Positions 5,625 through 36,579 of a stretch of 37,382 nt of DNA are shown in pieces. Position 1 is the stretch's first letter, and the number at the start of each line of letters is the position of its first letter. The stretch lies in the sequence record DRR378314_1836, one strand, 5' to 3'. A program made the position numbers and the translations under genes. The notes beneath the pieces were generated by a model. That model searched no databases, was not told where the DNA came from, and saw only the letters and a program-made list of their open reading frames with translations.

Positions 5625-5643
5625 AAGGCAATTTTTAACCGTA

Positions 5644-8340
5644 TTAAAACTCGAAACTTAAGGCTAGTTTTATGGTTCGGCCAAATATTGGTCGGCCATA
5701 AAATAGCGGTTCTTGGTGGTTCAGATCATCTCTTGGATTACCTTCCGTCAAGCCCAGTGTGTTAGTGACGTTTTTCACTTCAAATTGCGCGCTGAGCTGC
5801 TCTGTTAGCATATACTGCGCAAAAATATCCCACGTTTGATACGCCGGCAATGCAAATTGATTGGCAATATCAGAATAACGTTTCCCTACATAAGACCAAG
5901 TGATTGCCAGCGTTAGAGGCCCGACGTTATATTCTGGGGAGAGACGCAGTTGCAACTTCGGTGTACGGGTTATTTGGTTACCATTATATTTACTTTGTGG
6001 TAATCGACCGGGAATGCCATAGAACCCTGCATCTTGCCACACGCCTATCGCAGAATACTGCCAAGTCTGATTAAACTGATAGTTATATTCAAACTCTAAC
6101 CCTTGAGTTTGGGTGTTAATTAACACTGCCTGTTGTGTATTTTCAGCACCGCGATAAACAGTAAACGCAAGAGGATCAAAGTTAGTATCAAAAACAGTGC
6201 CGCTAAACTGCCAGTGTGATGATTGGTAACGTATTCCGATTTCACTTAAAGTTAAGCTTATTGGCTGGCCAAAGTTTTGCTGTGCGCGTTGCTCATCGTT
6301 TTTAGCCCAACCGCGAGCATTACCATAATTTATTAGTCGCGGCATTTCAAAAGCGTCAGCATAGCGCGTAAACACAGCTAGCTGCTCACTGAGTTGGTAG
6401 TTGGCTCCGATACTGAGCGCATTTTCACTGAAAGAATCGGCTAGTGAGCTTGTCTCAGAGAAGTGTGAGTAATAAGGCTTTGCATTGGATGTTGATGATA
6501 GCAGGCCCCGCTGACTATGACTGTTTAGCCTAAGCTGCTCATTTCGCAGTGCAAAATCCACCCTTAGTTTGTCAGTTAAGTGCCAGTCCAAACTTGCATA
6601 AAGAGAATGTGACTGCGACTGCCCTTGGCCTGTTAAATACACCGGCCCTGCATAGGATAAAAAACCTTCTTCGGTAAAATTAGCAATAACATTATCTTGT
6701 TTATCCACCAGCACAATATCAAGCCGTTCAGGCTGGTGTTTTACATCAGTAAGTAATTGCCCAAGCCATTGATCTAAAGGCAAAGAGTTAAAATCGCTGT
6801 GGGCGTAAATGTGTCCTAAGCTGATTGACCAATCTTCTTTCAGGTAGTTAATACTAAAATGATTTATAAACTGTTGTTGCTCGTAGGTAGAGTGCAACGG
6901 GTAGCTTGAAGTGATCAGTCCATTGCCATTAAGTCGATGGGGATCGTGAATTAACGTTTTATCCTTGCTGCGCTGGTATTTGGCTTGTAACTCTTCTTGT
7001 AATTTACCCTTTGAAAAAAGATTTTTAAATTGTGTTACATCATCAAACAGTAAGCGGCTATTTGCATCAATAATGCTCTCGTTGCCCAAGTTCATTAACG
7101 TATAAAGGCGATTACTTAAGTCTGCGTAACGGGTGATATTATTAAGTTGCAGTTGTTCTGAAAGTAGCCCTTTGAACTGGACTGTGTAGCTGTTCATTAA
7201 AGTGTGTTGCGCATCTTCTAAATCATGTTGACGGATGCCTTGTGGGGTATAAAAGCTCAATGATTTTAGGTCACCGCTAAGTAATGTGCCGTAGTCATAG
7301 GGGAGGCTTTGTAGTTGTTCGATAGTGCCATGATTTTGCATAACTAATGGGGCATAAAAGCTGGTTTTATCGTTTAAGTGCTTGTAGCTAAAATCCAACT
7401 CTATATCATCTGTTAGCCAGCTGAGACGGGCGCTAAATTGACCGCCTAAATCACTGTTAAAGCCAGGTTCACGAATGCCATTTGAGCTCCTATAAAAACC
7501 ACCTAAGGTATAAAAAAGCTGATCATTAATAGGGCCACTAAATACACTGTCAAGACGAGTGTAGTCATAGTTTAGTGCTTGGCTAAGTTTAACTAAGTTA
7601 AATGGTATTTCGTCGCCGCGTCGACCAACATAGTTTACCATTGCAGCAGGGCCGTTTAGGGTGAAAATTCCGCTACTACCACCTCTTACAGCTTCAATTT
7701 TTTGATGGGTGAGATCGGGGCGTAAAAAAAAATCACTCCAAATACCATCGTAGGTTATTGGCAGCCCATCTTCCATTAAGCTGATAAAGCGAAACCCTTC
7801 ACCACCTCTAAGGCCGCGTGGTGCAACATTGTTATTAGTTTCGCCACCTGAATCCTCTACCCAAAAGCCTGTGACATGTTTAAGAATTTCAGCGTTGGAA
7901 TATGGGGTATGTTGATTTAGTTGCTGCGCTGACAGCTGAGTGATTGAAATAGAAGAATTTAAAATATTACGCGTTTTACCACTGACGCCAGTGACTATAA
8001 TACGCTCAAAGTCGTTCAGTTTATCAACGGGTGTTGGGGTTACAAAAATACGCTGTTGAGTGGAGTCTAAGGTAAATTGATATGGGCTATTGGCCAAAGT
8101 TTTAACCAATAATTGCTCAAGCGTAAAGCGCCCTTGTAGTGGGGGAAGGGGCGCCTGTGCTTTTATATCTGCGGCGCTTAGTTGCCAACCACTTTGCGCA
8201 GCAACATCAAGCATGCGCTGCTGCAAAGTAGCTTCAGCTAAATTAAATTGATAGTCAGTAGTAGCATGTAGATAGCTACTAAATAATATCAACCAAGGTA
8301 ATTGCTTGGTCAATAACCTCAATAACATGGTTTGATTCAA
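5644..8340 (-). CDS. TonB-dependent receptor/transducer with N-terminal STN-like signalling extension
   Basis: ~85 aa extension (YQFNLAEATLQQRMLDVAAQSGWQL..PLQGRFTLEQLLVKTLANSPY) before TonB box ERIIVTG; plug motif IEAVRGGSSG; C-terminal F; directly downstream of fecR-like gene; start TTG8340 or ATG8328. Confidence 0.9.
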   Translation of the reverse strand: MNQTMLLRLLTKQLPWLILFSSYLHATTDYQFNLAEATLQQRMLDVAAQSGWQLSAADIKAQAPLPPLQGRFTLEQLLVKTLANSPYQFTLDSTQQRIFVTPTPVDKLNDFERIIVTGVSGKTRNILNSSISITQLSAQQLNQHTPYSNAEILKHVTGFWVEDSGGETNNNVAPRGLRGGEGFRFISLMEDGLPITYDGIWSDFFLRPDLTHQKIEAVRGGSSGIFTLNGPAAMVNYVGRRGDEIPFNLVKLSQALNYDYTRLDSVFSGPINDQLFYTLGGFYRSSNGIREPGFNSDLGGQFSARLSWLTDDIELDFSYKHLNDKTSFYAPLVMQNHGTIEQLQSLPYDYGTLLSGDLKSLSFYTPQGIRQHDLEDAQHTLMNSYTVQFKGLLSEQLQLNNITRYADLSNRLYTLMNLGNESIIDANSRLLFDDVTQFKNLFSKGKLQEELQAKYQRSKDKTLIHDPHRLNGNGLITSSYPLHSTYEQQQFINHFSINYLKEDWSISLGHIYAHSDFNSLPLDQWLGQLLTDVKHQPERLDIVLVDKQDNVIANFTEEGFLSYAGPVYLTGQGQSQSHSLYASLDWHLTDKLRVDFALRNEQLRLNSHSQRGLLSSTSNAKPYYSHFSETSSLADSFSENALSIGANYQLSEQLAVFTRYADAFEMPRLINYGNARGWAKNDEQRAQQNFGQPISLTLSEIGIRYQSSHWQFSGTVFDTNFDPLAFTVYRGAENTQQAVLINTQTQGLEFEYNYQFNQTWQYSAIGVWQDAGFYGIPGRLPQSKYNGNQITRTPKLQLRLSPEYNVGPLTLAITWSYVGKRYSDIANQFALPAYQTWDIFAQYMLTEQLSAQFEVKNVTNTLGLTEGNPRDDLNHQEPLFYGRPIFGRTIKLALSFEF

Positions 8341-8402
8341 TATTTTTATTATTGTCCAAACTTTGTACCATTTTTAGCGCACGTATGCCATGCCACTTTT
8401 AG

Positions 8403-9452
8403 CTAATTAGCTGCTAACGTAAACTTTTTCCCTTCTTGAGTCACCGTGATTGGATAAATTTTATCAAGGGTGTGTAGCCATGAGTCGATTTCAGAGGTTA
8501 ACAAAGTCCCATTGTAGGTAAATTGACTAAGCTTTTGGCTGCCAAGGGTTATTTTTAGCTCACTATAACGGGCAATATCGTCAAGTACATCACCTAAGCG
8601 AGCATTCTGATACACTAAACGCCCTTGCTGCCAATCCATGGTGAGGTTTTCTCCTTGTGCTTTGCTACGAATAATAGTGCCAGTTTGAGTTATTTGCGCG
8701 GCTTGTCCTTGGGTTAATTTAATTGTTTGCTGCTGTGCAAGCGATACCGTGCCCTCAAGTACATCAACGCGAATAGAAGTAGGATGAGCACGCACATTGA
8801 ACACCGTGCCTAGTGCTTCTACTTGGCTTTGCTGGTGGCGCACAATAAAGGGTCTTTGTTTGTCTTTAGCGACTGAAAATAGTGCTTCACCTTGGTACAA
8901 AGTTAACTCTCGCGAGCTATTACTATAGCGCACAGCTAATTGACTATTAGCGCCTAAATCTACTCGGCTGTTATCATCTAAAGTGAAAGTACGGTGCTCG
9001 TTGATTGTGGTGCGAAAAAACTGATTTTGCACATCGGTCATTGCTGGACTGTTATTTGCCACCGTAACAGTCTTATTTCTGGGCTGTTCAACATTAATGA
9101 AGATACTAAAACTTAATAAAAAAAACGCGGCAGCTAAGGCATAATAGCTTGTTCGAGAGCGTTTTTCAGTACGTTTAATCATGTCTATCGCAGGTGGTAT
9201 TTGCGCAAGCTGTTGCTCTACGTAATCAGTATCTAGTTGCGTAGTTACTTGCCATAGTTGCTGCATTTTTTGAAAAATATCACGGTGCAATTCGCTTTGC
9301 GCCAACCAATCTTGCAACTGAGTTGGGTAGTGATGGCTGTTACTAATGGGCAGTTGCTGCTCCTCTAATAGCAAAAGCCAATCAGCGGCTTGCTCTTCAA
9401 TAATCGCTAAATCGTCAGGTGATGGGTTCATGCTAATATCCTTAAAACTCAT
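8403..9452 (-). CDS. FecR-family anti-sigma/transmembrane sensor
   Basis: EEQAADWLL..WLAQSELHR N-domain, one TM, TLDDNSRVDLGANS, LYQGEALFSVAKDKQRPFIV, LGTVFNV, WQQGRLVY. Confidence 0.93.
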   Translation of the reverse strand: MSFKDISMNPSPDDLAIIEEQAADWLLLLEEQQLPISNSHHYPTQLQDWLAQSELHRDIFQKMQQLWQVTTQLDTDYVEQQLAQIPPAIDMIKRTEKRSRTSYYALAAAFFLLSFSIFINVEQPRNKTVTVANNSPAMTDVQNQFFRTTINEHRTFTLDDNSRVDLGANSQLAVRYSNSSRELTLYQGEALFSVAKDKQRPFIVRHQQSQVEALGTVFNVRAHPTSIRVDVLEGTVSLAQQQTIKLTQGQAAQITQTGTIIRSKAQGENLTMDWQQGRLVYQNARLGDVLDDIARYSELKITLGSQKLSQFTYNGTLLTSEIDSWLHTLDKIYPITVTQEGKKFTLAAN

Positions 9453-9454
9453 GA

Positions 9455-10033
9455 TCAAAGCTCATGTTGTAACTGTTGATAGCAATGACGAACTGCACGT
9501 AATACATATTTTCGTACCATACTGGGAGATATTTGTAAGGTCAAAGCGATTTCTTCATAACTTTGACCACGAATTTTATACAGTAAAAAAGCCAGTCTGC
9601 ATTTGTCTGGCAAACTTGCGAGGGACTTCTCCATTTCTTTAAGTAATTCTTGGGTATGATGATTTTTCTCAGGGTTGGCACTGTTACCAAGTTGCGGCAT
9701 TTGCTCACTTTCGTCAGTGTGCTCTGCAAACGGACTGCGAGCTTTACGACGAAGCTTATCGATGGTTAAGTTGGTTGCTATTTTATATAAATAAGCAGCA
9801 ATGTAATTACTTACTTGGGCATCTTCTAAACCTAACAGTTTTACAAATGCTTCTTGTGCTATGTCCTCTGCTTCACGCTGATCAAGGCCTTTAGCCATAA
9901 TATGGCGTACTAACTTTTGCTGTTGTTGTAAAAACAGCTGCTCAACCTGCTGACGGCGCTGGGCATCGGCTTGTATCGTCACCGGGGCCTCGTTTGCGGC
10001 TTTCTTTCGTTTAAATGACAATAAAGGTGGCAT
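9455..10033 (-). CDS. ECF sigma-70 factor, FecI-like
   Basis: Region 2 AEDIAQEAFVKL..YLYKIATNLTIDKLRR; region 4 LPDKCRLAFLL..GQSYEEIA..SPSMVRKY; ATG10033 preferred because the ORF-track start at 10090 lies inside a hairpin. Confidence 0.92.
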   Translation of the reverse strand: MPPLLSFKRKKAANEAPVTIQADAQRRQQVEQLFLQQQQKLVRHIMAKGLDQREAEDIAQEAFVKLLGLEDAQVSNYIAAYLYKIATNLTIDKLRRKARSPFAEHTDESEQMPQLGNSANPEKNHHTQELLKEMEKSLASLPDKCRLAFLLYKIRGQSYEEIALTLQISPSMVRKYVLRAVRHCYQQLQHEL

Positions 10034-10062
10034 GGCTACGCATCCTATTCTTCCATTTATAG

Positions 10063-10100
10063 TGCTACATGGGTTGTACCAATAGTACAACCCATGTGCA
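10063..10100. other. Strong intergenic stem-loop between GH20 gene and sigma gene
   Basis: ACATGGGTTGTAC (10067-10079), loop CAATA, GTACAACCCATGT (10085-10097): 13 bp perfect, extendable by 3 bp past a bulge; no U-tract on the minus strand. Confidence 0.8.
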
Positions 10101-10110
10101 GTTTGCTTAG

Positions 10111-12855
10111 CTAGTTAATTGTTGCGACGCGGCTTACTTTGCCAGAATCACTTACCGTTCTCAGCAGTACACTTGCTGTTGTCGTAAGTGATACGGGATC
10201 TTGATAGCTTTGCCATGTTGCACCTTGATCTGTTGAATACTCTGTTTTCATGCCAACAAATCGTGTATTCACTATGAGCTGGCCGTTTTCAATATTGCCA
10301 CCGGGTAGAGGTATACGGTAATTAACGCCAACGTGTTCTGGCATTTGAGCATTAATATCGACCACTTGGTAATAGTCCAATAGTGGTAGAGCGTACTGTC
10401 CTAAGGTATTGGTGAAGGTTTGCCAAGCTTGTTCCATAGCAGCTCCTTCGGCTGGCATGCTCTGCACCCACGCACGCTCTGCTGCCCCTAATAACTTAGG
10501 GAAGGTCATGTAATCTAAAATTTCGGGGGATTTTTGATTTTCACCAAATAACTGTGCCTGAATCCCTTGGATATTTTGTTTACCGGTTTCATTAAGTAAT
10601 ACCCAGTTTGGGTTCCAAGGCACAGGATTGCCTAGTTTGTCAGTTTCAGCGTTGGCGTAAATATTAAACGGGCGATACTCAAAGGTTTTTTTCGTGTCGG
10701 TGTAGCCCGCCCAATGATAGCCAACTTCATCAGGGTGTTTATTGTAAGCTAAATCCAAATACAGGTTTGTGGCATGAGAGAGCACGACTTGATACCCCTG
10801 ATTAGCAAACTTATAAGCTTGATGCTCATTGCCCCAACCCCATACATTGTTCCAAAAAATAGGGTAGATGGTGCCATAATCTACGTTGCCGGTGCCATTA
10901 TGTGATAACACATCGCCCCAAGTTGCCATATCAAAACCATGTTGATTGACGATTTGTTTCCAGCGTAAGAAAAAGTAATCAAACAATTCAGCATCGGTTT
11001 TGCCCGCTGTGTTTGGGTTTTGCTGTACCGCAGGGGATTGAGCCCACCATTCATTTGGCCCTAAATGCGGCAATTCATCACCACCGCCATGTAAACGAGT
11101 AAGCTTAGCATCTGGGACTGCATCGTAGATTGCGCGGGTTTCACTGATTATATGGTTTAAAAATGTGAAGGTGCTCTCAAGCGCAGGATTGACAAAGTTA
11201 TCAGTATAAAATTGCGGTGTGTAGTACTTGGATTGATCTAGCGGATCGATCAGGCGATATTTGTTTGCTTGTGCTAAGTTGCTGTCTTTATATTTATTAT
11301 AACGATACTCCATTGCTTTAATGGCGGCTCTAGCATGGGCAGGGAAATCATATTCGATGATCACATCTATATGTCGGTCGGCGGCATACTGTAAAATCTC
11401 TTTGAAGTCATTAACAGTGTAGTAGCCCCAACCTTTGCCTAAGAAGTTTTGCTGCGCAACTTCAAAACCTTGAAAGCTAGGAGCAACGCCTAAGTTAGCC
11501 TCGGTGCGATTAGCTGGTTTATTTTCGATACCATCACCGGCTGCAAATTCATTGGCTGCGCCCATAAACGTATGTAGCATGTTTTCTTCGTTAAGATCAT
11601 AACCACGCTTGGCACCAAAGTCGGTGAGTTCAGGAATACCTGGGATCTCAAGTCGCCAGCCTTCGTCATTGGCAAGGTTAATTTCGAATTTATTTAATTT
11701 ATAAAAAGCCATTAAATCTAGTAGCTTGAATACTGTTTCTTTAGATTGAAAATTGCGTGCTACATCCAGCATCATGCCGCGATAGGCAAAGCGCGGCGCA
11801 TCAAGAATAACACTTGCAGGTAATACGGTGTTGTCGGCCAAGGTTGTAGAGTTTTGCGCATTTTTATATACAGTTGCAGGGATCATTTGGCGTAATGTTT
11901 GAATACCATAAAACACGCCTTGTGCATCACTGCCAGTAATTTTAATACCCGTAAAAGCATTAATCTCCAGTTTATAACCACTGTCGTCGGCTTGGCCGTC
12001 TTGATTTGTGTCTAGGTTGCTATCAATCAATAGAGTGATTTGATTAGGACCATTTTGTTGGTTGGCATTAATTGCAAAGCTGCCGCTGAGCAAATCGCTT
12101 AACGCCGTTTGCAAATAAGCCGCTTCTATTGTAAGCGCTGCTGGCGCAGTAATTGTGGTTAACTGACTCATTAAGGTTAAAAACTCATTAGCAGTGGTTA
12201 CGACTGAATGTGGCTGAGGGACAAGTTGGTTTTGTAACGATAAACTGGCAAGCGGCGCACTGTTTTCGCTAAATCGTAATGCGCTGGTTTGCACCGGCAT
12301 ATTATCGTTAGCTGTTTGTGTGGTTTGTTTTGGATCGGTTGGATCCATATGAACATCCACCAATACCGCCTGAGGTGCTTGGTTATCATAGCTAATATGA
12401 AACCCAGAAGGCGAATCATTTTTTAGCATTTGCCAATACTGGGCGATAATTTCTATTTCACGAGACTCACCTGGTTGAATAGGCGTAAATCCTGCTATGG
12501 GTTTTAAGACAAAATAATCCCCGCTTTTTGCTGTGTCTGCATTGTCGAGACTTAAATGTTGTGCCGCAATATGCTGGCGAGCTAATGCACCGTTTGGATC
12601 TGAACTTGGCAATACGCTAGCTGGTGGCCGCACTGAGCTAAAGTATAACGCCCAGCCAGCTTCACCGAGCGGTTCTAAACCATTGTTAGTAATGGTTAAG
12701 CTACCCATAAATATATTTTCACCAATACCATGATCAATCACTTGCCAATTTAATGCTAAGTTATCTGGGTTCGGTTGGGCGCTGCTAAATTGACTCGCAG
12801 TGAGTAATGCTAATACTGAAAGTGCTGTAGTAAATTTTTGCTTTTTAACAAACAT
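10111..12855 (-). CDS. GH20 beta-N-acetylhexosaminidase, chitobiase-type architecture (CHB_HEX N-domain, GH20b, catalytic barrel, C-terminal Ig)
   Basis: Signal peptide; DAPRFAYRGMMLDVARNF, DEGWRLEIPGIPELT, catalytic HGGGDE, LYLD, AERAW, NYRIPLPG, YSTDQG. Confidence 0.93.
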   Translation of the reverse strand: MFVKKQKFTTALSVLALLTASQFSSAQPNPDNLALNWQVIDHGIGENIFMGSLTITNNGLEPLGEAGWALYFSSVRPPASVLPSSDPNGALARQHIAAQHLSLDNADTAKSGDYFVLKPIAGFTPIQPGESREIEIIAQYWQMLKNDSPSGFHISYDNQAPQAVLVDVHMDPTDPKQTTQTANDNMPVQTSALRFSENSAPLASLSLQNQLVPQPHSVVTTANEFLTLMSQLTTITAPAALTIEAAYLQTALSDLLSGSFAINANQQNGPNQITLLIDSNLDTNQDGQADDSGYKLEINAFTGIKITGSDAQGVFYGIQTLRQMIPATVYKNAQNSTTLADNTVLPASVILDAPRFAYRGMMLDVARNFQSKETVFKLLDLMAFYKLNKFEINLANDEGWRLEIPGIPELTDFGAKRGYDLNEENMLHTFMGAANEFAAGDGIENKPANRTEANLGVAPSFQGFEVAQQNFLGKGWGYYTVNDFKEILQYAADRHIDVIIEYDFPAHARAAIKAMEYRYNKYKDSNLAQANKYRLIDPLDQSKYYTPQFYTDNFVNPALESTFTFLNHIISETRAIYDAVPDAKLTRLHGGGDELPHLGPNEWWAQSPAVQQNPNTAGKTDAELFDYFFLRWKQIVNQHGFDMATWGDVLSHNGTGNVDYGTIYPIFWNNVWGWGNEHQAYKFANQGYQVVLSHATNLYLDLAYNKHPDEVGYHWAGYTDTKKTFEYRPFNIYANAETDKLGNPVPWNPNWVLLNETGKQNIQGIQAQLFGENQKSPEILDYMTFPKLLGAAERAWVQSMPAEGAAMEQAWQTFTNTLGQYALPLLDYYQVVDINAQMPEHVGVNYRIPLPGGNIENGQLIVNTRFVGMKTEYSTDQGATWQSYQDPVSLTTTASVLLRTVSDSGKVSRVATIN

Positions 12856-12914
12856 AATGGCTCCTGAGCATTGTTATTATCTGTAGAGCGCTTACTGCAA
12901 GTTGACTCTAAGGT

Positions 12915-12944
12915 TATAAACGCTTTTAGGAGGCCGTTTGGGAA
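12915..12944 (-). promoter_or_regulatory. Candidate ECF-sigma promoter TTCCCAAAC-N13-CGTTTATA, copy 1
   Basis: Plus strand TATAAACG 12915-12922, 13 nt, GTTTGGGAA 12936-12944; same boxes and spacing at 18002-18031. Confidence 0.75.
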
Positions 12945-12982
12945 CGAAAAACTAAAAAAAGCGCTAAATACGTATTTAGTAT

Positions 12983-13043
12983 TAGGGCGTGTCGACCTTT
13001 CAGAATTAAAATTTGTTCTATCTCGAAAGATAAACACGCCCAA
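12983..13043. repeat. Short MITE-like element with 19-bp imperfect terminal inverted repeats
   Basis: TAGGGCGTGTCGACCTTTC (12983-13001), 23 nt, GAAAGATAAACACGCCCAA (13025-13043); 15/19 complementary; resembles 37323-37341. Confidence 0.7.
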
Positions 13044-13058
13044 GAACTTTAGGCGGTT

Positions 13059-15344
13059 TTAGTACACGGCAATTTCATCAATATAAAGTGGTAGCTTTGG
13101 GATTTGCGGGTCATCAGATTGCTTACTATTGACCGCAATAACTTTTAAATAGCGCAGCTCCACACCATTAAATACCAGAGTCGATAATGGCCCTTGCGGG
13201 TTAATGTCCTCGGCTAAGCGCTGCCAATTTTGTTGATCGTTCGAGCCCATGACTTGAATTTTTATGGGAGGATGGAGTTGACGGTGGCGTCCACTGTTGT
13301 AACCCAGTTTAACTTGGGTCACCAAAGTAGGCTCTGCCAAGTCGATTATCGCCTCTAAATCAGTGTCGTAAAAAATCGCATAATCGTCACTGCTGTAAAA
13401 TTGATCATAGGCAAACTGGCCATCTTGCAATTTGGCTGCAGAATCATCGGCAGCTGTATTACTAAGCGTAATTTTTTTAGTTAATGCCAAATGTGGACTG
13501 AGGGTAAGGCGGGCATCACCAACTAACTGCCCAATTGCACCTGCATAGCTTTTTGCACGCAGTTGCGTTTCTTTAGAAATGACTAACGGCTCACTGTAGA
13601 TCATTGATGAAAGTGTTGGCTCTGTGCCATCTAAGGTGTAATAAATGCGTGTGTTGGCAATCTCGGTGCTGATCTTAGCCTGTAAATTATTACCTATAAT
13701 TGTGCTGCTTATAATCGGCTTATAGGCGCTGCTAGCCGTATTGATATGCATCTGTTGGTAACGTTTAAATAATGCTGGTAAGCGGTTTTGGCTATAGTCA
13801 GACCAAGATTTATTGTGTTTGTTAGACCACAATGTTTCAGCTAATGCACTTAAGCGAGGAAAGAGCATATACTCGGCGTGACGAGGGGTTTTAATGTACT
13901 CAGTCCATAAAGCGCCTTGTGCGCCAATAATGTAAGCTTGTTGATCGGCGCTTAAGTCAGTAGGTTGAGGATCGTACTGGTATACATCTTTTAATCCCGT
14001 TAAGCCATGAATTGCTTTAGGTTCGTCTAGATTGCGTGATTGATAAGCATCAAAATAAATATATTGATACGGGCTCATGATCACTTGATGGCCCATTTTC
14101 GCCGCTTGAATGCCGCCTTCTGTGCCACGCCATGACATGATCAAGGCATCATCTGCAACGCCTCCTTCGAGTATTTCATCCCAGCCAATTACCTTTTTAT
14201 CAAGTGCTTGCACTATTTTTGCTACCCGTTTAATAAAGTAGCTTTGTACTTGCTCGGGGGTTGTAAGGTTATGCTGCTGCATTAATTTTTTCACCTGTGT
14301 ACTTGCCAGCCACTGCTTTTTAATCACTTCATCGCCGCCGATGTGTATATACTGGCTTGGGAATAACTCAGCTACCTCTTGATAAACCACCGCGAGAAAT
14401 TCAAATACATCTTCACGCGGGCATAGCACATCTTCAAAAATGCCAAATTGTGCTTGTACACTAACGGGTTGCTGATGACATGAAAGTTCAGGGTAAGCGG
14501 CAAGGATTGCAGTGCTATGGCCTGGAATATCAATCTCAGGAATGACTTCAATATGACGTGCTTTGGCATATTCAATCACTTCTTTAATTTGTGCTTTAGT
14601 GTAAAAACCCGATACCGGTTGGTTATCAAACAGTGGTTTATAATCATAAGTATGACCTACCACAGTATGCGGGCGAGTAGCACCAATGGAGGTAAGTTTT
14701 GGATAGGCATCAATTGCAAGACGCCAGCCTTGGTCGTCGGTTAAATGCCATTGAAAGACATTTAACTTATGCATAGCGAGCCAATCTATGTAACGTTTAA
14801 TAAAGGCTACATCAAAGAAGTGTCGACTCACATCTAAATGCATTCCACGATAACTAAAGCGTGGCTCATCGTTAATCTCAACTAGTGGGATAAGCCAGCT
14901 TTGGCGATTAATTGGCATGCGTGACTCTATGGCTTCGGGCAATAACTGGCGCAAAGACTGCATCGCCCAAAATAGACCTTGTACAGTATTTGCTTTGGCT
15001 TCAATAAATTCTTTTTTAACAATTAATTGATAGCCTTCAGCGCTAACTGGGTGCTCGACAAGTTTAAAAAACACACTATTTTTAACTGTGTTATTCGCTT
15101 GTGTTACGGGGAATTGGTAGCCAGTTGGTGGGCGTAAAAAATCAGCAAAATGCTGTGCAACAGCTGCTGCGTCACTATGGTTATAGTGAATTTCAGTATC
15201 GTAAGCCAAAGCAAAACTGCCTTGGCTATAGTGACTGCTGGTTGGTTTTGGAGTGATCTGTGCAAGTGCAAAGTAGGGACTAACAAGCAGTAGCAGTGCT
15301 AGTAGACTGCATTTTAGGCATATAGCAATATAGCGTTGAGGCAT
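13059..15344 (-). CDS. GH20 beta-N-acetylhexosaminidase with C-terminal Fn3-associated/CHB_HEX_C and F5/8-type-C (CBM32-like) domains
   Basis: ATG15344 after CAGGAAG; signal peptide; DEPRFSYRGMHLDVSRHF, WHLTDDQGWR, PEIDIPGH, HIGGDE, GWDEI, YFDAY, LWTEY; YYTLDGTEPT; LQDG..IIDL..RYLKV..IDEIAV. Confidence 0.95.
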   Translation of the reverse strand: MPQRYIAICLKCSLLALLLLVSPYFALAQITPKPTSSHYSQGSFALAYDTEIHYNHSDAAAVAQHFADFLRPPTGYQFPVTQANNTVKNSVFFKLVEHPVSAEGYQLIVKKEFIEAKANTVQGLFWAMQSLRQLLPEAIESRMPINRQSWLIPLVEINDEPRFSYRGMHLDVSRHFFDVAFIKRYIDWLAMHKLNVFQWHLTDDQGWRLAIDAYPKLTSIGATRPHTVVGHTYDYKPLFDNQPVSGFYTKAQIKEVIEYAKARHIEVIPEIDIPGHSTAILAAYPELSCHQQPVSVQAQFGIFEDVLCPREDVFEFLAVVYQEVAELFPSQYIHIGGDEVIKKQWLASTQVKKLMQQHNLTTPEQVQSYFIKRVAKIVQALDKKVIGWDEILEGGVADDALIMSWRGTEGGIQAAKMGHQVIMSPYQYIYFDAYQSRNLDEPKAIHGLTGLKDVYQYDPQPTDLSADQQAYIIGAQGALWTEYIKTPRHAEYMLFPRLSALAETLWSNKHNKSWSDYSQNRLPALFKRYQQMHINTASSAYKPIISSTIIGNNLQAKISTEIANTRIYYTLDGTEPTLSSMIYSEPLVISKETQLRAKSYAGAIGQLVGDARLTLSPHLALTKKITLSNTAADDSAAKLQDGQFAYDQFYSSDDYAIFYDTDLEAIIDLAEPTLVTQVKLGYNSGRHRQLHPPIKIQVMGSNDQQNWQRLAEDINPQGPLSTLVFNGVELRYLKVIAVNSKQSDDPQIPKLPLYIDEIAVY

Positions 15345-15358
15345 TGTAACTTCCTGAG

Positions 15359-15380
15359 AAAAGCCCGCAATAGCGGGCTT
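15359..15380 (-). terminator. Weak intrinsic terminator/attenuating hairpin between TonB receptor and first GH20 gene
   Basis: Minus strand AAGCCCGC-TATT-GCGGGCTT then TTCTC; only four U residues. Confidence 0.6.
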
Positions 15381-15427
15381 GATTAAACTAATTAGCACTG
15401 GGCATAGCGCAAATTAGCAAGGGGGCT

Positions 15428-17944
15428 TTAAAAATTAAGGGTCAAAGATGCGCTGATAGTGCGCCCTAAAATAGGTCTGGCGTAGTAATAGTCATAGCCT
15501 GCCTGTACATCGTTAATTGCTCGTGGATTCCCTTCGGTTAAGCCAAGTTCATCACTGAGATTAGTGGCTTTAACATGCAAGGCAACGCTGTCATTAAAGC
15601 GATAATTGACACCCATATCGACGGTAGTATAAGCCGGTAGCTCAAATTTATTTTCGCCGTCGGAGTATCGCTCACCTAGATGATGAACCGTTAAGTACAC
15701 ATCGCCATCGTCAAAGTAATAAGTGGGAGTAAAGCGTAATTGTACTTTGGGAGTACGTTTAACTTGTTTGCCATTCCAGTGTGAGAAAACACCAGTAAAA
15801 CCTTCCATCTTCGGGTTTTGTACCACACCAGTTAATTCCAGTTGTAATGAATCGAGTGCTTGCCAAACAGCCTCAAACTCTACCCCATCAGTAATAGTAT
15901 CAATCGTTTGGTTGGCGACTTCACCGTTGCTACCAGTAAAGTTACGCTCTACTAAGTCATTAAATTTGGTTCTAAATAACGTGACTGAGGTGCCTAGGGT
16001 GTCGCCTGAATAACGAGCGCCAAGTTCGCTAAAGGTAAGATTTACACTGTCATTAAAGTCAGCATCAACACCGGCATGAATGTTTTGCCCGTAGCTCATT
16101 AAACGCGGCATTTCGAACGCATCGGCGTAGCGGCCAAACATGGAAACATCGTCACCAATGGTGTAATTAAAGCCCACTGTCCATGCAGTTTCTGTTTCAT
16201 CACGTTTTTTGGATAAGTATTTTGTTGAGGTGGTATCAACGTAGTTATTAGCGAGGTTGTTATCTACATCATTGCCACTTGCATCAAACGCGCCATCAAC
16301 AGGTTTGGCAAACTCAGTGCCAGATGCCGTGCTATCAAGTTCTAGCCATTCAACGCGAATACCACCATCCAGACGTAAGTTATCAGTTGCTTGATATTGC
16401 TCATTAATAAATAGTGAGTTCGAGGTACTAGTACCAAATGCTGTCGCTTGACCCCAGCCAGGTGCATAGCCGGTTGAGCCGTTGTCGGTGAGCTGACCAA
16501 CCACTTGCTGGTTATCATCTACGGCAACAATATCAAGTAATCGAGCATTGTCTTTAACTTCGGTTAAAAATTGCGATTCCCATTTATCAACAGGCAGTGA
16601 ATCGGCATCGACATAAGCAAACAACCACCCCATAGTGAAAGTGTGTTTATCGCCTTCGTAGGTAAAATTAAGCTTATTAACGAATTGCTCGGCATCGTAA
16701 CGAGAATACAGCGGGTAGCTGGTGGTAACTAAGCCATTGCCATTTAGGTTACTTACATCATTAAGCATTTCGCCGCTATCTACATAACGATATTGGGCTG
16801 CTACAGCGCCATCATCCGCAAACTCATCAAGCATTGCCAGTACATCTTGTTGGCCAAGTCGGTCATTGGCATTGACTAAGGTTGAGTTGTCAAAGTTAAG
16901 CAATATATACATATCGTTTTCAAACTTAGAGTAACGGCCTGCTGTATTAAGTAACCAGCGATCATTGAGCTCCCAATCAAGGTTGTAGCCTAAGGTACTA
17001 AATTTAGTGTGTTGGCCGTCTTTAAGATCGCGTGTTTGGTAACTGCCATCTTCTTGCAAATAGTTAAGTAAGCGCTGACCATTCCCAATTAATGTGCCGT
17101 GTTGCGGATCAACCCCGGGAATGCCTTTTGGATTGTTTTGATCTTGCAGCGGAATTGGCACAAAGAAAGTGGTGTGATCATTTAAATGTTTAGCCGAGAG
17201 GGTTAGTTGTCCTTTATCAAACTCGCGTACTAGATTAAGCCTAAGCTGGCCACCGTGGTCGGCAGTAAATTCGGTGTCTCTGACTCCGTCTGAACGACGA
17301 TAAAAACCACCCATAGACATTTTCCAATTATCACTGATAGGCGTGCCGTAAAAAAACTCACTACGGTACATGCCATAATCGGCAGTTGTGAACTTTATAG
17401 TGGCTTCTTCAACATCATCGGGTTTGCGAGTAATAAAGTTAACGAGTGCCGCAGGGCCGTTAGTAGTCAGTAAACCTGACGTACCACCGCGAACGGCTTC
17501 CATATGTTTGATGGTAATATCTTGACGTTGATAAAAATCTACCCATACGCCGTCGTATACAACTGGCAAGCCGTCTTCTTCAACGCCGATATAACGAAAT
17601 CCTTCACCACCTCTAAGACCACGTGGCGCTACATTGTTATTGGTTTCACCACCTGAGTCTTCAACCCAAAAACCTGGCACTGCTTCAAGTAAATCAGCAG
17701 TACCTAGCGGGGCTTCACGGGAGAGTTGCTCAGCATCTAAGGTGGTGATTGAAACTGATGATTCTAATTTTGTTTGTCCACGCCCGCCACTACCTGTGAC
17801 AACGATGCGTTCAAGATCGAGAAGTTTTTTTTGCTCGGTATTAGAGGCAGAGCTTTGTTCTGCTGCAATAGTATTAATACTGAATAATGCACTGCTTACA
17901 GCTAATGCTATGAGGTGTTTATTGTAAGTTCTGTTGTTGTTCAT
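15428..17944 (-). CDS. TonB-dependent receptor without signalling extension, likely GlcNAc-oligosaccharide transporter
   Basis: Signal peptide; TonB box ERIVVTG close to mature N-terminus; MEAVRGGTSG; LGLTEGNPR..ARPILGRT..F C-terminus; upstream of two GH20 genes (substrate is inference). Confidence 0.93.
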   Translation of the reverse strand: MNNNRTYNKHLIALAVSSALFSINTIAAEQSSASNTEQKKLLDLERIVVTGSGGRGQTKLESSVSITTLDAEQLSREAPLGTADLLEAVPGFWVEDSGGETNNNVAPRGLRGGEGFRYIGVEEDGLPVVYDGVWVDFYQRQDITIKHMEAVRGGTSGLLTTNGPAALVNFITRKPDDVEEATIKFTTADYGMYRSEFFYGTPISDNWKMSMGGFYRRSDGVRDTEFTADHGGQLRLNLVREFDKGQLTLSAKHLNDHTTFFVPIPLQDQNNPKGIPGVDPQHGTLIGNGQRLLNYLQEDGSYQTRDLKDGQHTKFSTLGYNLDWELNDRWLLNTAGRYSKFENDMYILLNFDNSTLVNANDRLGQQDVLAMLDEFADDGAVAAQYRYVDSGEMLNDVSNLNGNGLVTTSYPLYSRYDAEQFVNKLNFTYEGDKHTFTMGWLFAYVDADSLPVDKWESQFLTEVKDNARLLDIVAVDDNQQVVGQLTDNGSTGYAPGWGQATAFGTSTSNSLFINEQYQATDNLRLDGGIRVEWLELDSTASGTEFAKPVDGAFDASGNDVDNNLANNYVDTTSTKYLSKKRDETETAWTVGFNYTIGDDVSMFGRYADAFEMPRLMSYGQNIHAGVDADFNDSVNLTFSELGARYSGDTLGTSVTLFRTKFNDLVERNFTGSNGEVANQTIDTITDGVEFEAVWQALDSLQLELTGVVQNPKMEGFTGVFSHWNGKQVKRTPKVQLRFTPTYYFDDGDVYLTVHHLGERYSDGENKFELPAYTTVDMGVNYRFNDSVALHVKATNLSDELGLTEGNPRAINDVQAGYDYYYARPILGRTISASLTLNF

Positions 17945-18001
17945 CTTATTCCCTTCGTTGTTGTTATAGACAAAGCTGACGGATTATTGGCTTTGTAAAT
18001 C

Positions 18002-18031
18002 TATAAACGAACGAAGGGGGAGGTTTGGGAA
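18002..18031 (-). promoter_or_regulatory. Candidate ECF-sigma promoter TTCCCAAAC-N13-CGTTTATA, copy 2
   Basis: Plus strand TATAAACG 18002-18009, 13 nt, GTTTGGGAA 18023-18031; 58 nt upstream of the receptor ATG (copy 1 is 60 nt upstream of its ATG). Confidence 0.75.
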
Positions 18032-18052
18032 TCGTTTCTTATAAAAAATTAT

Positions 18053-33276: not shown

Positions 33277-34605
33277 TTAAATAAAACCCAGAGTATGTTG
33301 GTTAAAGTTGGCTAAATTCGGGAATATATCTACTAGTTCTGAGTCAGGTACGCCAAACCACTTGGCTAAAGTGGCAAAGTACTGCTCATTCGCAACGTCG
33401 GGTATTAATCGTCCACCTCGGGTGTCTTTTGGACCGCCTAAATGTTGGGTCAACAAGGAGCCATATAAATCGCCACCGTTTACCGCGCCGCCCATTACAA
33501 GATGATTCCCCGCCCAACCATGATCAGTACCATTACCGTTAGAGGTTAATGTTCGGCCAAACTCACTCATGGTAAACAGTGTCACATTGTCTTGTTTATT
33601 TAGGTAAGACATTGCGCGATTAAACTCAGCTAACGACTGTGATAACTGGCTGAGCAATGAAGCATGGCTGCGATTTTGGTCGCCATGAGTATCAAAGCCA
33701 CCCATTGACACATAAAATACTTGGCGTTTACACCCAAGTTGAGATTGAATTGATATTGTACGTGCTATCGTTTTAAGCCTACGAGAAAGAGAGCTGTTAG
33801 AAAATACACCATCAATAGGATCAGAGTCTTGGAGGGCAATATTCATTGCTGAGGTTTTATCAATGGATGCTTTTACACGCGAGCCATAGGCTTGCGCAAT
33901 AGGGTTTGTTTGACCTGTTAATACGCGATTAAACAGGTTATTCACATGTTCACTACGCTCTTGTGAGCCGCTTAAAGCATTAATGCGGCTTATGCCATTG
34001 CTGCTTAAACTAAAGGGCATGCTGTTGCTGCTAGTTTGCCAGAGGTTCATTCCTGAGAGCGAAATATTGCCGCCAAACTGTTCACTTTGTTGCAGTCGCT
34101 CTAATAATCTTGCGCCCCAGCCACTATTTAGTGAGCTTTGCTCTTTGCCATACATCCATGTTGCTCGTTGTTTGTTATGCGAAAAAAGGTGCAGTGGGAG
34201 TGGAACAGACTTATTGATAACATCTTGCTGCGTTGTTGGCGCAATTAAGCTGCCAACGCCAGTAACAAAGGCCAGTTGGCGCTCTTCAAATATACTTTGC
34301 AATGGCGCTAAAGAATTATGCAAACCAACACCGCCTTCTTGTGCGGTATCTGGCGACAATTGCAAAGGGTTATTAATAGCTAAATTTTGTCGGCTTGCTT
34401 CATATAGGCTGCGTGCTTCGCCTTCAATGGGCACCAACATATTTAAAGAGTCATTACCGCCACTTAAATAAACGCACACGAGTGCTTTATATTCGTCATC
34501 AGCAAAATTGCTAGCACCTTGAAAAGCCTGCAACTGTAATTGAGTAAGTGCAGCCATAGACACACCACCCTTTAAGCATAAGTCTAAAAACTTTCTTCTA
34601 TCCAT
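33277..34605 (-). CDS. Tat-exported DUF1501 protein
   Basis: DRRKFL twin-arginine motif; YKALVCVYLSGGND, LFSH, GWG, GGFDTH, SEFGRT..NG.GTDHGW. Confidence 0.92.
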   Translation of the reverse strand: MDRRKFLDLCLKGGVSMAALTQLQLQAFQGASNFADDEYKALVCVYLSGGNDSLNMLVPIEGEARSLYEASRQNLAINNPLQLSPDTAQEGGVGLHNSLAPLQSIFEERQLAFVTGVGSLIAPTTQQDVINKSVPLPLHLFSHNKQRATWMYGKEQSSLNSGWGARLLERLQQSEQFGGNISLSGMNLWQTSSNSMPFSLSSNGISRINALSGSQERSEHVNNLFNRVLTGQTNPIAQAYGSRVKASIDKTSAMNIALQDSDPIDGVFSNSSLSRRLKTIARTISIQSQLGCKRQVFYVSMGGFDTHGDQNRSHASLLSQLSQSLAEFNRAMSYLNKQDNVTLFTMSEFGRTLTSNGNGTDHGWAGNHLVMGGAVNGGDLYGSLLTQHLGGPKDTRGGRLIPDVANEQYFATLAKWFGVPDSELVDIFPNLANFNQHTLGFI

Positions 34606-34614
34606 GACACTCTC

Positions 34615-36579
34615 CTATTGCTGCAAGCTGTATTCGGCTGAAACCGTAATTAAATACACGATATACGAAAGCCTTAAATGACTTTCACTTGACGAAAAGT
34701 AAGCGTCCATATCGTAAATTGCATTGCGCATATCGTGTGACATAGCACCTGCAAAGAATAATGTGTCGTACTTATCGATAACCGCATTTAAGCCAAAGTT
34801 AGCCAGTAACTCCAAGTCATCACCCATGTACAAATAGACATAGTTTTCATTGAGTTCATCATAACGTTCTGCAACGCGTCGGCTCATTTCATCAAAATGA
34901 GTATTTAGTGTATTGATCACATAAGCATCGTTGGCAATTTGTAATTCTGGTGCAACAAGCATAGAGCCCGATAGCTCTTGAGGTTGATGATCCGGTTGGT
35001 AAAAGTTAAAAACAGAGGGGGACTGCAACGGGCCTTGGCCAAACTTTAGGCTTAAATTGCTGGTGTAATAACGATTATTTAGCGACTTAGCCTTGAATAC
35101 CCGCCACAGTTGCATTTGTTTAAGGAGTGGCTCTCTCACTTTACCAAAATAAGCAAGAGGCGCTGCAAACTGCCGAGCTTCAGGGTCAAGGTAGATTGCT
35201 TTTATTACAGCACTCAAGTCACCTTTAACACCTTGGCCATTATCATTAAAAATTTTAGCAACCCGCTCAATGTAACTGGGGGACGGGTTTGATGTAATTA
35301 ACTTTAAAATTAATTGTTTACTTATAAATGGAGCTATATTTGGGTGTGCAAAGATTGTATCGAGCGCTATTTTTAGTGAGGTTTCTGCATCAGTATTAGC
35401 AGGAATAACCACATCACTGATTAAATGTTTCTCAGCTGTTGAATGATACGCCTCAAATGGGCTCATAAGAATTGAGTGGTTATTGCTCGGGCGCCCCCAA
35501 AACTCACTGGCGCCAAATGTCCAGCCAGTGAATACTTTAGCAAACCCTTCAATATCAGCTTGAGTATAAGCAGGGATCGGTTGGCCATTTGTATCTTTTT
35601 TTACTAAACCATTTAGCGATAACTCTTCTAAACCTATGCTAAATAACTGTAGCAGCTCCCTAGCATAGTTTTCGTCTGGGCGAATATTACGCTCTTCATC
35701 GGCTTTTTCATTGCCTAAATGATCCAAATATTTTCCCATGATAGGGGATCGAGATATAGTTTCAAGAATGTCACGGTAATTGCCAAATGCATTTTCTAGT
35801 AACATATCGTAGTAGCTCACCATGCCTTTAGGCTCATTTGCCAATGAGTTATTAAAGTCAGACACCACAAAAATTTGACTCATAGCATAGGCAACTCGCT
35901 GCCTGAGTTGATCAGGAGCGTTAATACTGCCTTTCCACCAGGCATCAATACGATTTATTTGCCGTGGATAATCTCTGTTTGGATAGTTTTCTAAATAATC
36001 GACATGGTAGGTAATGGGCAGCTGCATTTGTGAGTCTATCCATTCTTCAGCGCTTAACCCCTGCGCCGATAAAATCTCTTCGTACGTTGGCCCTAAACTG
36101 GCCTGATGTAAAAGCCGAGCAGCGTGCGAACTGTCCATGGTAGCTTTTGCAGTAAAACCAAATTCAAACTCACTTTGTGCGCCATGTTCATCCGTTACTC
36201 TAAGCAAAAAGCGATACGCTTCATCATAACCACTGAGGGGGGAGGGAATAGTCAGTGTTAACACCTCATTGCCTGAGATTTCAATTGGCTGCCCTGCAAG
36301 CTGTTGCCAATTATAGGTGAGTGTATCGCCATCTGAATCACTTGCGCTGGCGTTTAAAGTGAGGGTTTGACCGTGGCTCACACTATCAGGAGGGGAGAGG
36401 CTAATAACCGGAGCGGTGTTTTCGGTGGTCGTATCGTCATCTGAAGTATCCCCGCTAGCAGGAGGGGTTGTTGGGGTATCTGATACAGGTGTTTCCTTAC
36501 TTGTGTTTGCTTCATTGCCACCGCCGCATGCAACTAAAAAACAACTTGTAAGGATAGCTAGTGCTATTCGCTTACTCAT
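34615..36579 (-). CDS. DUF1800 lipoprotein with N-terminal PKD/Ig-like domain
   Basis: Lipobox LVAC-GGG; NTAP..ASDSDGDTLTYNWQQ; DQLRQRVAYAMSQIFVVS, PDENYARELLQLFSIGL, TSNPSPSY, PSVFNFY. Confidence 0.92.
   Translation of the reverse strand: MSKRIALAILTSCFLVACGGGNEANTSKETPVSDTPTTPPASGDTSDDDTTTENTAPVISLSPPDSVSHGQTLTLNASASDSDGDTLTYNWQQLAGQPIEISGNEVLTLTIPSPLSGYDEAYRFLLRVTDEHGAQSEFEFGFTAKATMDSSHAARLLHQASLGPTYEEILSAQGLSAEEWIDSQMQLPITYHVDYLENYPNRDYPRQINRIDAWWKGSINAPDQLRQRVAYAMSQIFVVSDFNNSLANEPKGMVSYYDMLLENAFGNYRDILETISRSPIMGKYLDHLGNEKADEERNIRPDENYARELLQLFSIGLEELSLNGLVKKDTNGQPIPAYTQADIEGFAKVFTGWTFGASEFWGRPSNNHSILMSPFEAYHSTAEKHLISDVVIPANTDAETSLKIALDTIFAHPNIAPFISKQLILKLITSNPSPSYIERVAKIFNDNGQGVKGDLSAVIKAIYLDPEARQFAAPLAYFGKVREPLLKQMQLWRVFKAKSLNNRYYTSNLSLKFGQGPLQSPSVFNFYQPDHQPQELSGSMLVAPELQIANDAYVINTLNTHFDEMSRRVAERYDELNENYVYLYMGDDLELLANFGLNAVIDKYDTLFFAGAMSHDMRNAIYDMDAYFSSSESHLRLSYIVYLITVSAEYSLQQ

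Follow-up and report, generated by a model that had tools for sequence, protein, structure and literature searches.

We analysed a 37,382-nt stretch of DNA from sequence record DRR378314_1836 (the window), which carries a gene block resembling the FecA-FecR-FecI type of cell-surface signalling system together with two hexosaminidase genes. The block is self-contained, measures 12.4 kb and belongs to a marine Pseudoalteromonas. Six co-oriented minus-strand open reading frames (ORFs) occupy 5644–17944: a TonB-dependent receptor (TBDR; T1), a GH20 hexosaminidase, a second, chitobiase-type GH20, an extracytoplasmic function (ECF) sigma factor, a FecR-like anti-sigma factor and a second TBDR (T2). 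A preliminary description, made from the sequence alone, had given this gene order, and both the ORFs and their Pfam domains bear it out. The features of the block, in the direction of transcription, are as follows.

18004–18031, minus strand: P1 motif, TTCCCAAAC-N13-CGTTTA, with its -10-like end 60 nt upstream of the T1 ATG
15428–17944, minus strand: T1, a TonB-dependent receptor of 838 aa with Pfam Plug and barrel, without a signalling extension
13059–15344, minus strand: GH20 of 761 aa (PF00728, 1e-124); the ORF extends from GTG 15398
13037–13055, minus strand: terminator-like hairpin directly 3' of the GH20 stop, at the end of unit 1
12917–12944, minus strand: P2 motif, the second copy, 62 nt upstream of the chitobiase ATG
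10111–12855, minus strand: chitobiase-type GH20 of 914 aa, with PF00728 (2e-77), CHB_HEX and CHB_HEX_C
10066–10098, minus strand: stem-loop with a 14-bp stem in the gap from chitobiase stop to sigma start
9455–10033, minus strand: ECF sigma factor of 192 aa from ATG 10033; the ORF extends from TTG 10090
8403–9458, minus strand: FecR-like anti-sigma factor with PF04773, PF16344 (FecR_C) and PF16220 (DUF4880); its start abuts or overlaps the sigma stop
5644–8328, minus strand: T2, a TonB-dependent transducer of 894 aa with a signalling domain at about residues 27–105; the ORF covers 5644–8340

The sigma start was refined to ATG 10033 by a conserved AGGA..ATGCCACC, and the first GH20 start to ATG 15344, which gives the 761 aa of its orthologues. 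T2 probably starts at 8328, for the same 894 aa as P0002. Among the 23 window ORFs, Pfam finds no chitinase, permease or N-acetylglucosamine (GlcNAc) catabolic family, in agreement with the earlier remark that the block holds neither a chitinase nor an inner-membrane permease. The same 23 ORFs include no ChiS-type hybrid sensor kinase, chitin-oligosaccharide binding protein or chitoporin. Where the hairpin at 13037–13055 sits, the orthologous locus of genome G521 has a clear hairpin followed by a T-run. The stem-loop between chitobiase and sigma is found in 15 of 15 Pseudoalteromonas loci, with differing stem sequences and a conserved structure; the window copy lacks a coding-strand T-run. Possible roles of the stem-loop are to reduce read-through into the regulator genes or to influence RNA stability.

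Both T1 and the unit formed by chitobiase, sigma, FecR and T2 are preceded, at a distance of about 60 nt, by a bipartite motif, ATTCCCAAA-N13/14-tCGTT(T/A)A. The window has 2 matches to its exact form against 0 expected from shuffled sequence. We counted the motif in 17 Pseudoalteromonas loci, namely the window and 16 others. It precedes T1 in all 17 and chitobiase in 16/16 loci that have this gene, and precedes the other four genes in 0 of 17. The seven loci of other genera, which have no chitobiase, carry it upstream of T1 (7/7, one with CTCCC) and upstream of sigma (5/7 with the strict pattern, 2/7 with one mismatch, TTCTC). G521, also without chitobiase, has a one-mismatch copy directly upstream of sigma, after its GH20 terminator. 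The two units are swapped in G532, and each retains its motif. Placement is also the same in the close metagenome loci. The 45 motif sites comprise 35 distinct cores, in which the boxes and their spacing are constant, with 17 nt from TTCCC to CGT, and the spacer sequence varies.

We infer that the module's own ECF sigma factor uses the motif as its promoter. P1 would then serve T1 and the first GH20, and P2 would serve the (chitobiase-)sigma-FecR-T2 unit. Where chitobiase is missing, the motif stands upstream of sigma itself, as would be expected of an autoregulated ECF promoter. Placement of the motif thus lends indirect support to a module that would induce its own importer and hexosaminidases. 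Across whole genomes, the strict pattern has 2 sites each in G009 and G016 and none in G001, which is without the module; a reversed control gives 0–1. The pattern was derived from these loci and recovers them by construction, and the informative part of this search is that no further sites appear.

Another regulator might own the motif instead, with the ECF sigma factor controlling other genes or only itself, and with GH20 and T1 regulated separately, for example by a NagR/NagC-type repressor. The link from sigma to motif is drawn from sequence. Many ECF sigma factors use GGAAC-type boxes, and the -35-like TTCCC is unusual for ECF promoters. A relaxed form of the motif gives 4–8 hits per genome against 3–12 in the reversed control; this is background level, from which the regulon can be neither firmly extended nor bounded and which brings no help from outside the locus. 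Against a separate regulator, the motif joins two boxes at a fixed distance across a free spacer, keeps a fixed distance from start codons and precedes the sigma operon in every type of locus. It also accompanies the module in four genera, in two or more genomic settings and after one rearrangement, and its strict form occurs nowhere else in the genomes searched, including the module-free close relative. We regard control by another regulator as improbable.

Both GH20 proteins have a signal peptide without a lipobox and the adjacent Asp-Glu catalytic pair of family GH20, which reads HIGGDE in the 761-aa protein and HGGGDE in the chitobiase-type protein. The C-terminal part of the 761-aa GH20 contains a Fn3_assoc/CHB_HEX_C_1 domain and a discoidin-like domain. 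Its closest solved relative is 6q63 (E 5e-145, full-length alignment), identified as BT0459 of Bacteroides thetaiotaomicron in PMC7426924. The chitobiase-type GH20 matches 9joq (6e-116) and the Serratia chitobiase 1qba (5e-97), and is predicted to be secreted or periplasmic. Genomes of P. piscicida have neighbouring orthologues of 761 aa and 914 aa, the latter 84% identical with a mature mass of 98.7–99.5 kDa; the precursor mass computed for the window's own 761-aa protein is 86 kDa. These orthologue sizes are compatible with Hex86 (761 aa) and Hex99 (914 aa), a GH20 pair characterised from that species (Alteromonas sp. O-7). Neither name appears among the 15 of 52 members listed for each of two clusters.

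The preliminary description had given T2 a signalling extension and proposed a search with the STN profile hidden Markov model over 5644–8340. The Pfam STN model itself has no match to T2 even at E<=10, and the Plug domain begins only at residue 128. The outcome nevertheless favours the earlier proposal, by a different route: its sequence, its modelled fold and structural matches to that fold mark T2 as a transducer-type receptor with an N-terminal signalling domain. Residues 30–101 match 2m5j, the HasR signalling domain (E 0.0019), and whole T2 aligns with HasR from residue 25 (4.8e-6). An AlphaFold 2 model of residues 26–130, built from 22 sequences, has a b-a-b-b-a-b-b fold with a mean predicted local distance difference test score (pLDDT) of 73, and of about 83 over the folded 80 residues. 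Its top Foldseek matches are the signalling domains of FoxA, FecA (1zzv, TMt 0.78), PupB (in complex with PupR), FpvA, PupA and HasR. Precomputed PF07660 annotation covers 5/94 T2 homologues, and the T2 orthologue of L062 scores 28.1 bits against STN, for which the cut-off is 28.4.

The FecR-like protein has the parts of its family: an N-terminal sigma-binding domain, a single membrane span (one hydrophobic stretch at residues 105–123), a periplasmic FecR domain and a C-terminal domain. Twelve sequences from 4 genera show no variation at A24, W27, L28 and L29 (AxxWLL) or in the stretch ALGTVFNV, which includes G217-T218; at such a Gly-Thr pair, FoxR-type anti-sigma factors undergo self-cleavage. 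The sigma factor has Sigma70_r2 (PF04542) and r4_2 (PF08281) and exceeds the cut-off of TIGR02937, with sub-threshold NCBIfam matches to PRK12527, the Bacteroidetes-type TIGR02985 and FecI. When the signalling domain is modelled together with FecR 135–351, the predicted contact lies at FecR_C residues 313–335 and the complex scores 0.79, against 0.47 for the best of 3 controls. The mark for such scores is reached by 51/78 solved complexes and 2/108 mismatched pairs. Three runs share at least 95% of contacts, and the partner pLDDT is 88. Since the like complex PupB-PupR is already solved, we take the prediction to indicate likeness and not binding.

The module is present in 16/140 Pseudoalteromonas genomes. 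A FecR orthologue (E<=1e-60) is found in 15/140 and a T1 orthologue (E<=1e-100) in the same 15 and in G532. Fourteen of these 15 loci have all six genes in the same order; the remaining one, in G521, is without chitobiase (L036 5605–8640) and so has the five-gene form of other genera. G532 has the order chitobiase-sigma-FecR-T2-T1-GH20, and its FecR is just 32% identical. Seven of the 15 loci lie between putA/HD-GYP and gspB, like the window, and eight lie elsewhere, which makes at least two kinds of context. A scan of contigs with N-terminal FecR peptides alone returned 6 close Pseudoalteromonas loci, and close loci include those of P. prydzensis, P. haloplanktis ATCC 14393 and P. maricaloris. 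In L022, an apparent pseudogene was rejected: the break seen in T2 and the X in the FecR sequence both fall on N bases. A stop in the translated T2 of L037 was likewise set aside, as it lies ahead of the true start.

In G001, the nearest genome, the flanks are 99% identical and 37 nt replace window positions 5625–18052; the block was therefore gained or lost as a whole. The exact window motif does not occur in G001 because that genome is without the module. The spacer left there (L100 3948–3982) has the words TTTTTTATAAG and TCCCCC in common with the P1 region, in opposite orientation, and could be a deletion scar or an empty site.

Outside the genus, a family-level draw of 401 genomes yielded 7 carriers from three other Alteromonadaceae genera. 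By Pfam, six of the seven have T1-GH20-sigma-FecR-T2 in unrelated contexts; the seventh was assigned by ORF sizes only. An order-level draw of 401 genomes, searched with FecR (1e-45), T1 (1e-120) and T2 residues 1–260 (1e-30), gave none; this was one draw, its 5 genus genomes are all non-carriers, and for one of the queries 2 candidates per genome were scored; all these blanks carry little weight. Named T2 homologues come from Bowmanella, Colwellia, Thalassotalea, Teredinibacter and P. tunicata. Metagenomes contributed 30 loci, of which 12 are close, 1 is ambiguous and 17 are distant. All 12 close loci fit the module as far as their contigs reach (3 complete with five genes, 1 complete with six and 8 cut by contig ends). 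A synteny survey had been proposed from the outset, and its outcome favours the earlier proposal: triad, GH20 and second TBDR occur together in 16/16 Pseudoalteromonas carriers, 7/7 carriers of other genera and, to the extent of each contig, 12/12 close metagenome contigs; the genes are inherited together. Both carriers of genus g20 have an acetyl-CoA synthetase gene directly 3' of T2 (L063 1280–3226 and L065 16571–18517), which may be chance or a link to acetate released from GlcNAc.

The two receptors form a constant pair. T1 and T2 are 40–41% identical; each has a TonB-box-like stretch (ERIVVTG in T1, after a signal peptide) and a C-terminal Phe. In a tree from 11 loci they fall into two clades with 100/100 support, each containing all four genera, and branches are about 3–5 times longer in T2. 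Because of these two four-genus clades and the longer T2 branches, we conclude that the duplication predates the spread of the module and that the sensor evolves faster. Protein identities agree with this: among the 15 same-order loci, T1 is 87–97% identical and FecR 55–89%. T1 is presumed to be the bulk importer, so that the pair would divide labour between a transporter and a sensor.

The next TBDR relatives outside the module sit beside GH13 amylases (L080, L082), that is, in carbohydrate and not iron loci. The metagenome locus L082 (4931–17710) has a GH13 amylase, an ECF sigma factor, a FecR, a 958-aa TBDR with an N-terminal extension, a tryptophan-halogenase-like gene, a 705-aa protein and an SSF symporter, with a LacI gene adjoining. 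It looks like a signalling triad linked to alpha-glucans. The TTCCC..CGTT motif is absent from L082, where the word TTTTTGTCACC stands upstream of both sigma and TBDR. Three high-GC metagenome contigs (L083, L084 and L088) carry distant sigma-FecR-TBDR triads, with TBDRs 28–33% identical, followed by a protein of about 500–620 aa without a Pfam family.

The neighbourhood of these relatives bears on whether the block could be an ordinary iron or siderophore signalling system in which the hexosaminidase genes are passengers. FecR, ECF sigma factor and transducer are the classical iron arrangement, and the best NCBIfam matches of T1 and T2 are siderophore-type subfamilies, although both score far under the cut-offs. 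Yet GH20 lies within the T1 unit in all 24 annotated genomic loci (the window, 16 of Pseudoalteromonas and 7 of other genera), chitobiase stands between the promoter-like motif and sigma, and Pfam identifies no siderophore, heme or ABC-iron genes in the block. The preliminary description had seen no Fur box, and a scan of the four intergenic regions for the 19-nt consensus likewise found none with <=6 mismatches, the best match having at least 7/19. Six weak matches in the block all fall in coding DNA, against 4.75 expected. With the nearest outside receptors next to amylases, we give the iron explanation very little credence.

The module nevertheless shares much with E. coli FecA-FecR-FecI and with the iron and heme systems of Pseudomonas and Serratia (FoxA/FoxR/FoxI, FpvA, PupB/PupR/PupI and HasR/HasS/HasI). 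Like them, it has a transducer with an N-terminal signalling domain, a single-span FecR with a G-T pair and a C-terminal domain, and an adjoining ECF sigma gene; the predicted contact between signalling domain and FecR_C resembles that of PupB-PupR. Unlike them, it has no Fur box, its cargo is two GH20 hexosaminidases, and a paralogous TBDR without the extension is always present. Further differences are that the sigma operon and the target operon share one motif and that the Pfam STN model misses the T2 domain. The E. coli fecIR operon is Fur-controlled and is not known to be autoregulated.

A second likeness is to the polysaccharide utilization loci (PULs) of Bacteroides that are run by ECF sigma and anti-sigma factors. 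In these PULs, signalling across the envelope reaches glycan-degrading genes, often including GH20. In both cases an outer-membrane TonB-dependent protein signals, or in the module would signal, to an ECF sigma factor set over such genes; moreover, the best solved relative of the core GH20 is BT0459, and the sigma factor scores TIGR02985 nearly as well as FecI-type models. The module differs in its gammaproteobacterial host, in having sensor and importer as separate paralogues and in comprising only 5–6 genes. SusD families and CarboxypepD_reg domains are both missing from the Pfam results for the window block and for the 6 scanned loci of other genera. PMC13543919 names ECF-sigma/anti-sigma-regulated PULs of Bacteroides, among host-glycan PULs, as a class. 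By analogy, the module could be viewed as a functional counterpart of these PULs without SusD.

Among Proteobacteria, the PrhA-PrhR-PrhI proteins of Ralstonia solanacearum are a FecA/FecR/FecI-type triad that senses a non-iron signal, contact with plant cells; signalling by PrhA acts on hrp virulence regulators and reportedly does not require transport (PMC1790865). The module shares with it the use of a proteobacterial triad for a non-iron signal and differs in its predicted control of an importer and glycosidases. Xanthomonas GlcNAc/Nix and Shewanella nag loci use the cytoplasmic repressors NagR/NagQ. Compared with these loci and the GlcNAc-chitin locus of P. prydzensis, the module has no cytoplasmic repressor, inner-membrane transporter or catabolic genes, and has a sigma/anti-sigma/transducer triad instead. 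What it shares with these proteobacterial loci is the pairing of TBDR and GH20 for N-acetylhexosamine (HexNAc) oligomers (PMC9537276; PMC4173781), and the repressor of the P. prydzensis ong cluster is the MurR/RpiR-type OngR (PMC9537276). The Vibrio-type chitin programme (ChiS, chitin-oligosaccharide binding protein and chitoporin) differs from the module, which has none of these families. The closest counterparts of its enzymes may be Hex99 and Hex86, by the adjacent GH20 orthologues of fitting size in P. piscicida; the texts consulted make no mention of sigma, FecR or TBDR genes beside those two. A search of the literature, with subscription journals and supplements outside its reach, turned up no account of a sigma/FecR/TBDR-GH20 module from Proteobacteria.

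We read the block as a cell-surface-signalling module for a glycan ending in beta-N-acetylhexosamine. The ligand would be a beta-HexNAc oligosaccharide, most likely a chito-oligosaccharide, and we assign this reading, with the mechanism given below, a probability of roughly 0.6. GH18 chitinases are found in 22/23 carrier genomes and in 15/23 non-carrier genomes of the genus, a weak contrast between genomes that are related and not phylogenetically independent. The match of the chitobiase-type GH20 to Serratia 1qba and the P. piscicida orthologues with sizes like those of Hex86 and Hex99 likewise speak for chitin.

The same module may instead serve another ligand, such as N-glycan or mucin-type fragments from animal or algal glycoproteins, peptidoglycan-derived or GalNAc-containing oligomers, or oxidised chito-oligomers. 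In four genera the core holds only the 761-aa type of GH20 with its discoidin-like C-terminal domain; chitobiase is an addition seen only in Pseudoalteromonas versions. The best solved relative of that core enzyme, Bacteroides BT0459, is presumably an N-glycan enzyme. Loci with annotated neighbours have no chitinase, chitin-binding protein or GlcNAc catabolic gene in or beside them, and one carrier, G860, is without GH18. Because of G860 and BT0459, chitin is not the sole candidate. P. prydzensis also reportedly takes up oxidised chito-oligomers by way of other TBDRs (PMC9537276). On the other side stand the GH18 chitinases of the other 22 carriers and, in the Pseudoalteromonas version, a chitobiase-type enzyme behind the same putative promoter. 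In addition, GH20 enzymes of such architecture commonly cut chito-oligomers (PMC7014002). A different ligand is in our view possible but rather unlikely.

Several of the points above weigh against a chito-oligosaccharide signalling module as a whole. They are the background-level counts of the relaxed motif, the unusual TTCCC box, the siderophore-type NCBIfam matches, the failure of the STN model on T2, the carrier without GH18, the assumed N-glycan role of BT0459 and the weak GH18 contrast. The equation of the GH20 pair with Hex86 and Hex99, which goes by size and species, remains a putative one, and none of the annotated loci contains chitinase or nag genes, which argues against a reading restricted to chitin. 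RNA-library contigs of relatives (85–95% alike) give a slight hint that the locus is expressed. Each of the six genes is covered in part, and the contigs bridge FecR to T2 (8180–9408), chitobiase to sigma (9648–10382) and GH20 to chitobiase (12775–13650, with a 59-nt skip); they do not resolve starts, levels or single transcripts, and may reflect DNA carry-over.

If the block is a chito-oligosaccharide signalling module, it would work as follows. T2 would bind the oligosaccharide at the outer membrane, and its periplasmic signalling domain would act on the C-terminal domain of FecR. The freed ECF sigma factor would read the two promoters, ATTCCCAAA-N13/14-tCGTT(T/A)A. From P1 it would drive T1, the importer, and the 761-aa GH20. 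From P2 it would drive the chitobiase-type GH20 and then, past a stem-loop that probably damps read-through, sigma, FecR and T2, closing a positive feedback. The GH20 enzymes would cut imported oligomers to HexNAc in the periplasm, and inner-membrane uptake and catabolism would be encoded elsewhere.

Two gene groups elsewhere in the window are worth recording. At 33277–36579, a DUF1800 protein with PKD and Ig-like domains lies beside a minus-strand DUF1501 protein; the two are often paired. At 177–2401 are two neighbouring proteins with an Lcl C-terminal domain, the first of which also has K319L-like PKD domains.

The strong points of our interpretation are a clean regulatory prediction and the pairing of sensor and importer; its weak point is the ligand and the proposed induction. 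Chitin turnover is a major marine flux of carbon and nitrogen, and its sensing by degraders other than Vibrio is poorly known. The module suggests that an iron-type signalling design has been re-used for carbohydrate in Proteobacteria, as described so far mainly for PULs of Bacteroidetes, and the presence in every case of both a signalling TBDR and a paralogue that does not signal points to separate receptors for sensing and for bulk uptake. The module also offers a compact, testable circuit from sensor to promoter, in which a single sigma factor would act on two promoters through a defined motif, and the motif and sigma/anti-sigma pair could possibly serve as an orthogonal sugar-inducible expression switch. 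The beta-1,6-(GlcNAc)2 product of a Hex99-type enzyme reportedly induces chitinase production, a finding attributed to Tsujibo et al. in 1999. On a more speculative and, for now, doubtful view, marine Gammaproteobacteria might have a class of glycan-sensing modules built on a split TBDR pair, a fast sensor and a slow importer, of which the HexNAc module and L082 would be members. The Pseudoalteromonas module would then be an outer-membrane chitin sensor atop the chitinolytic cascade, in the place of ChiS, with a Hex99-type transglycosylating chitobiase under ECF control.

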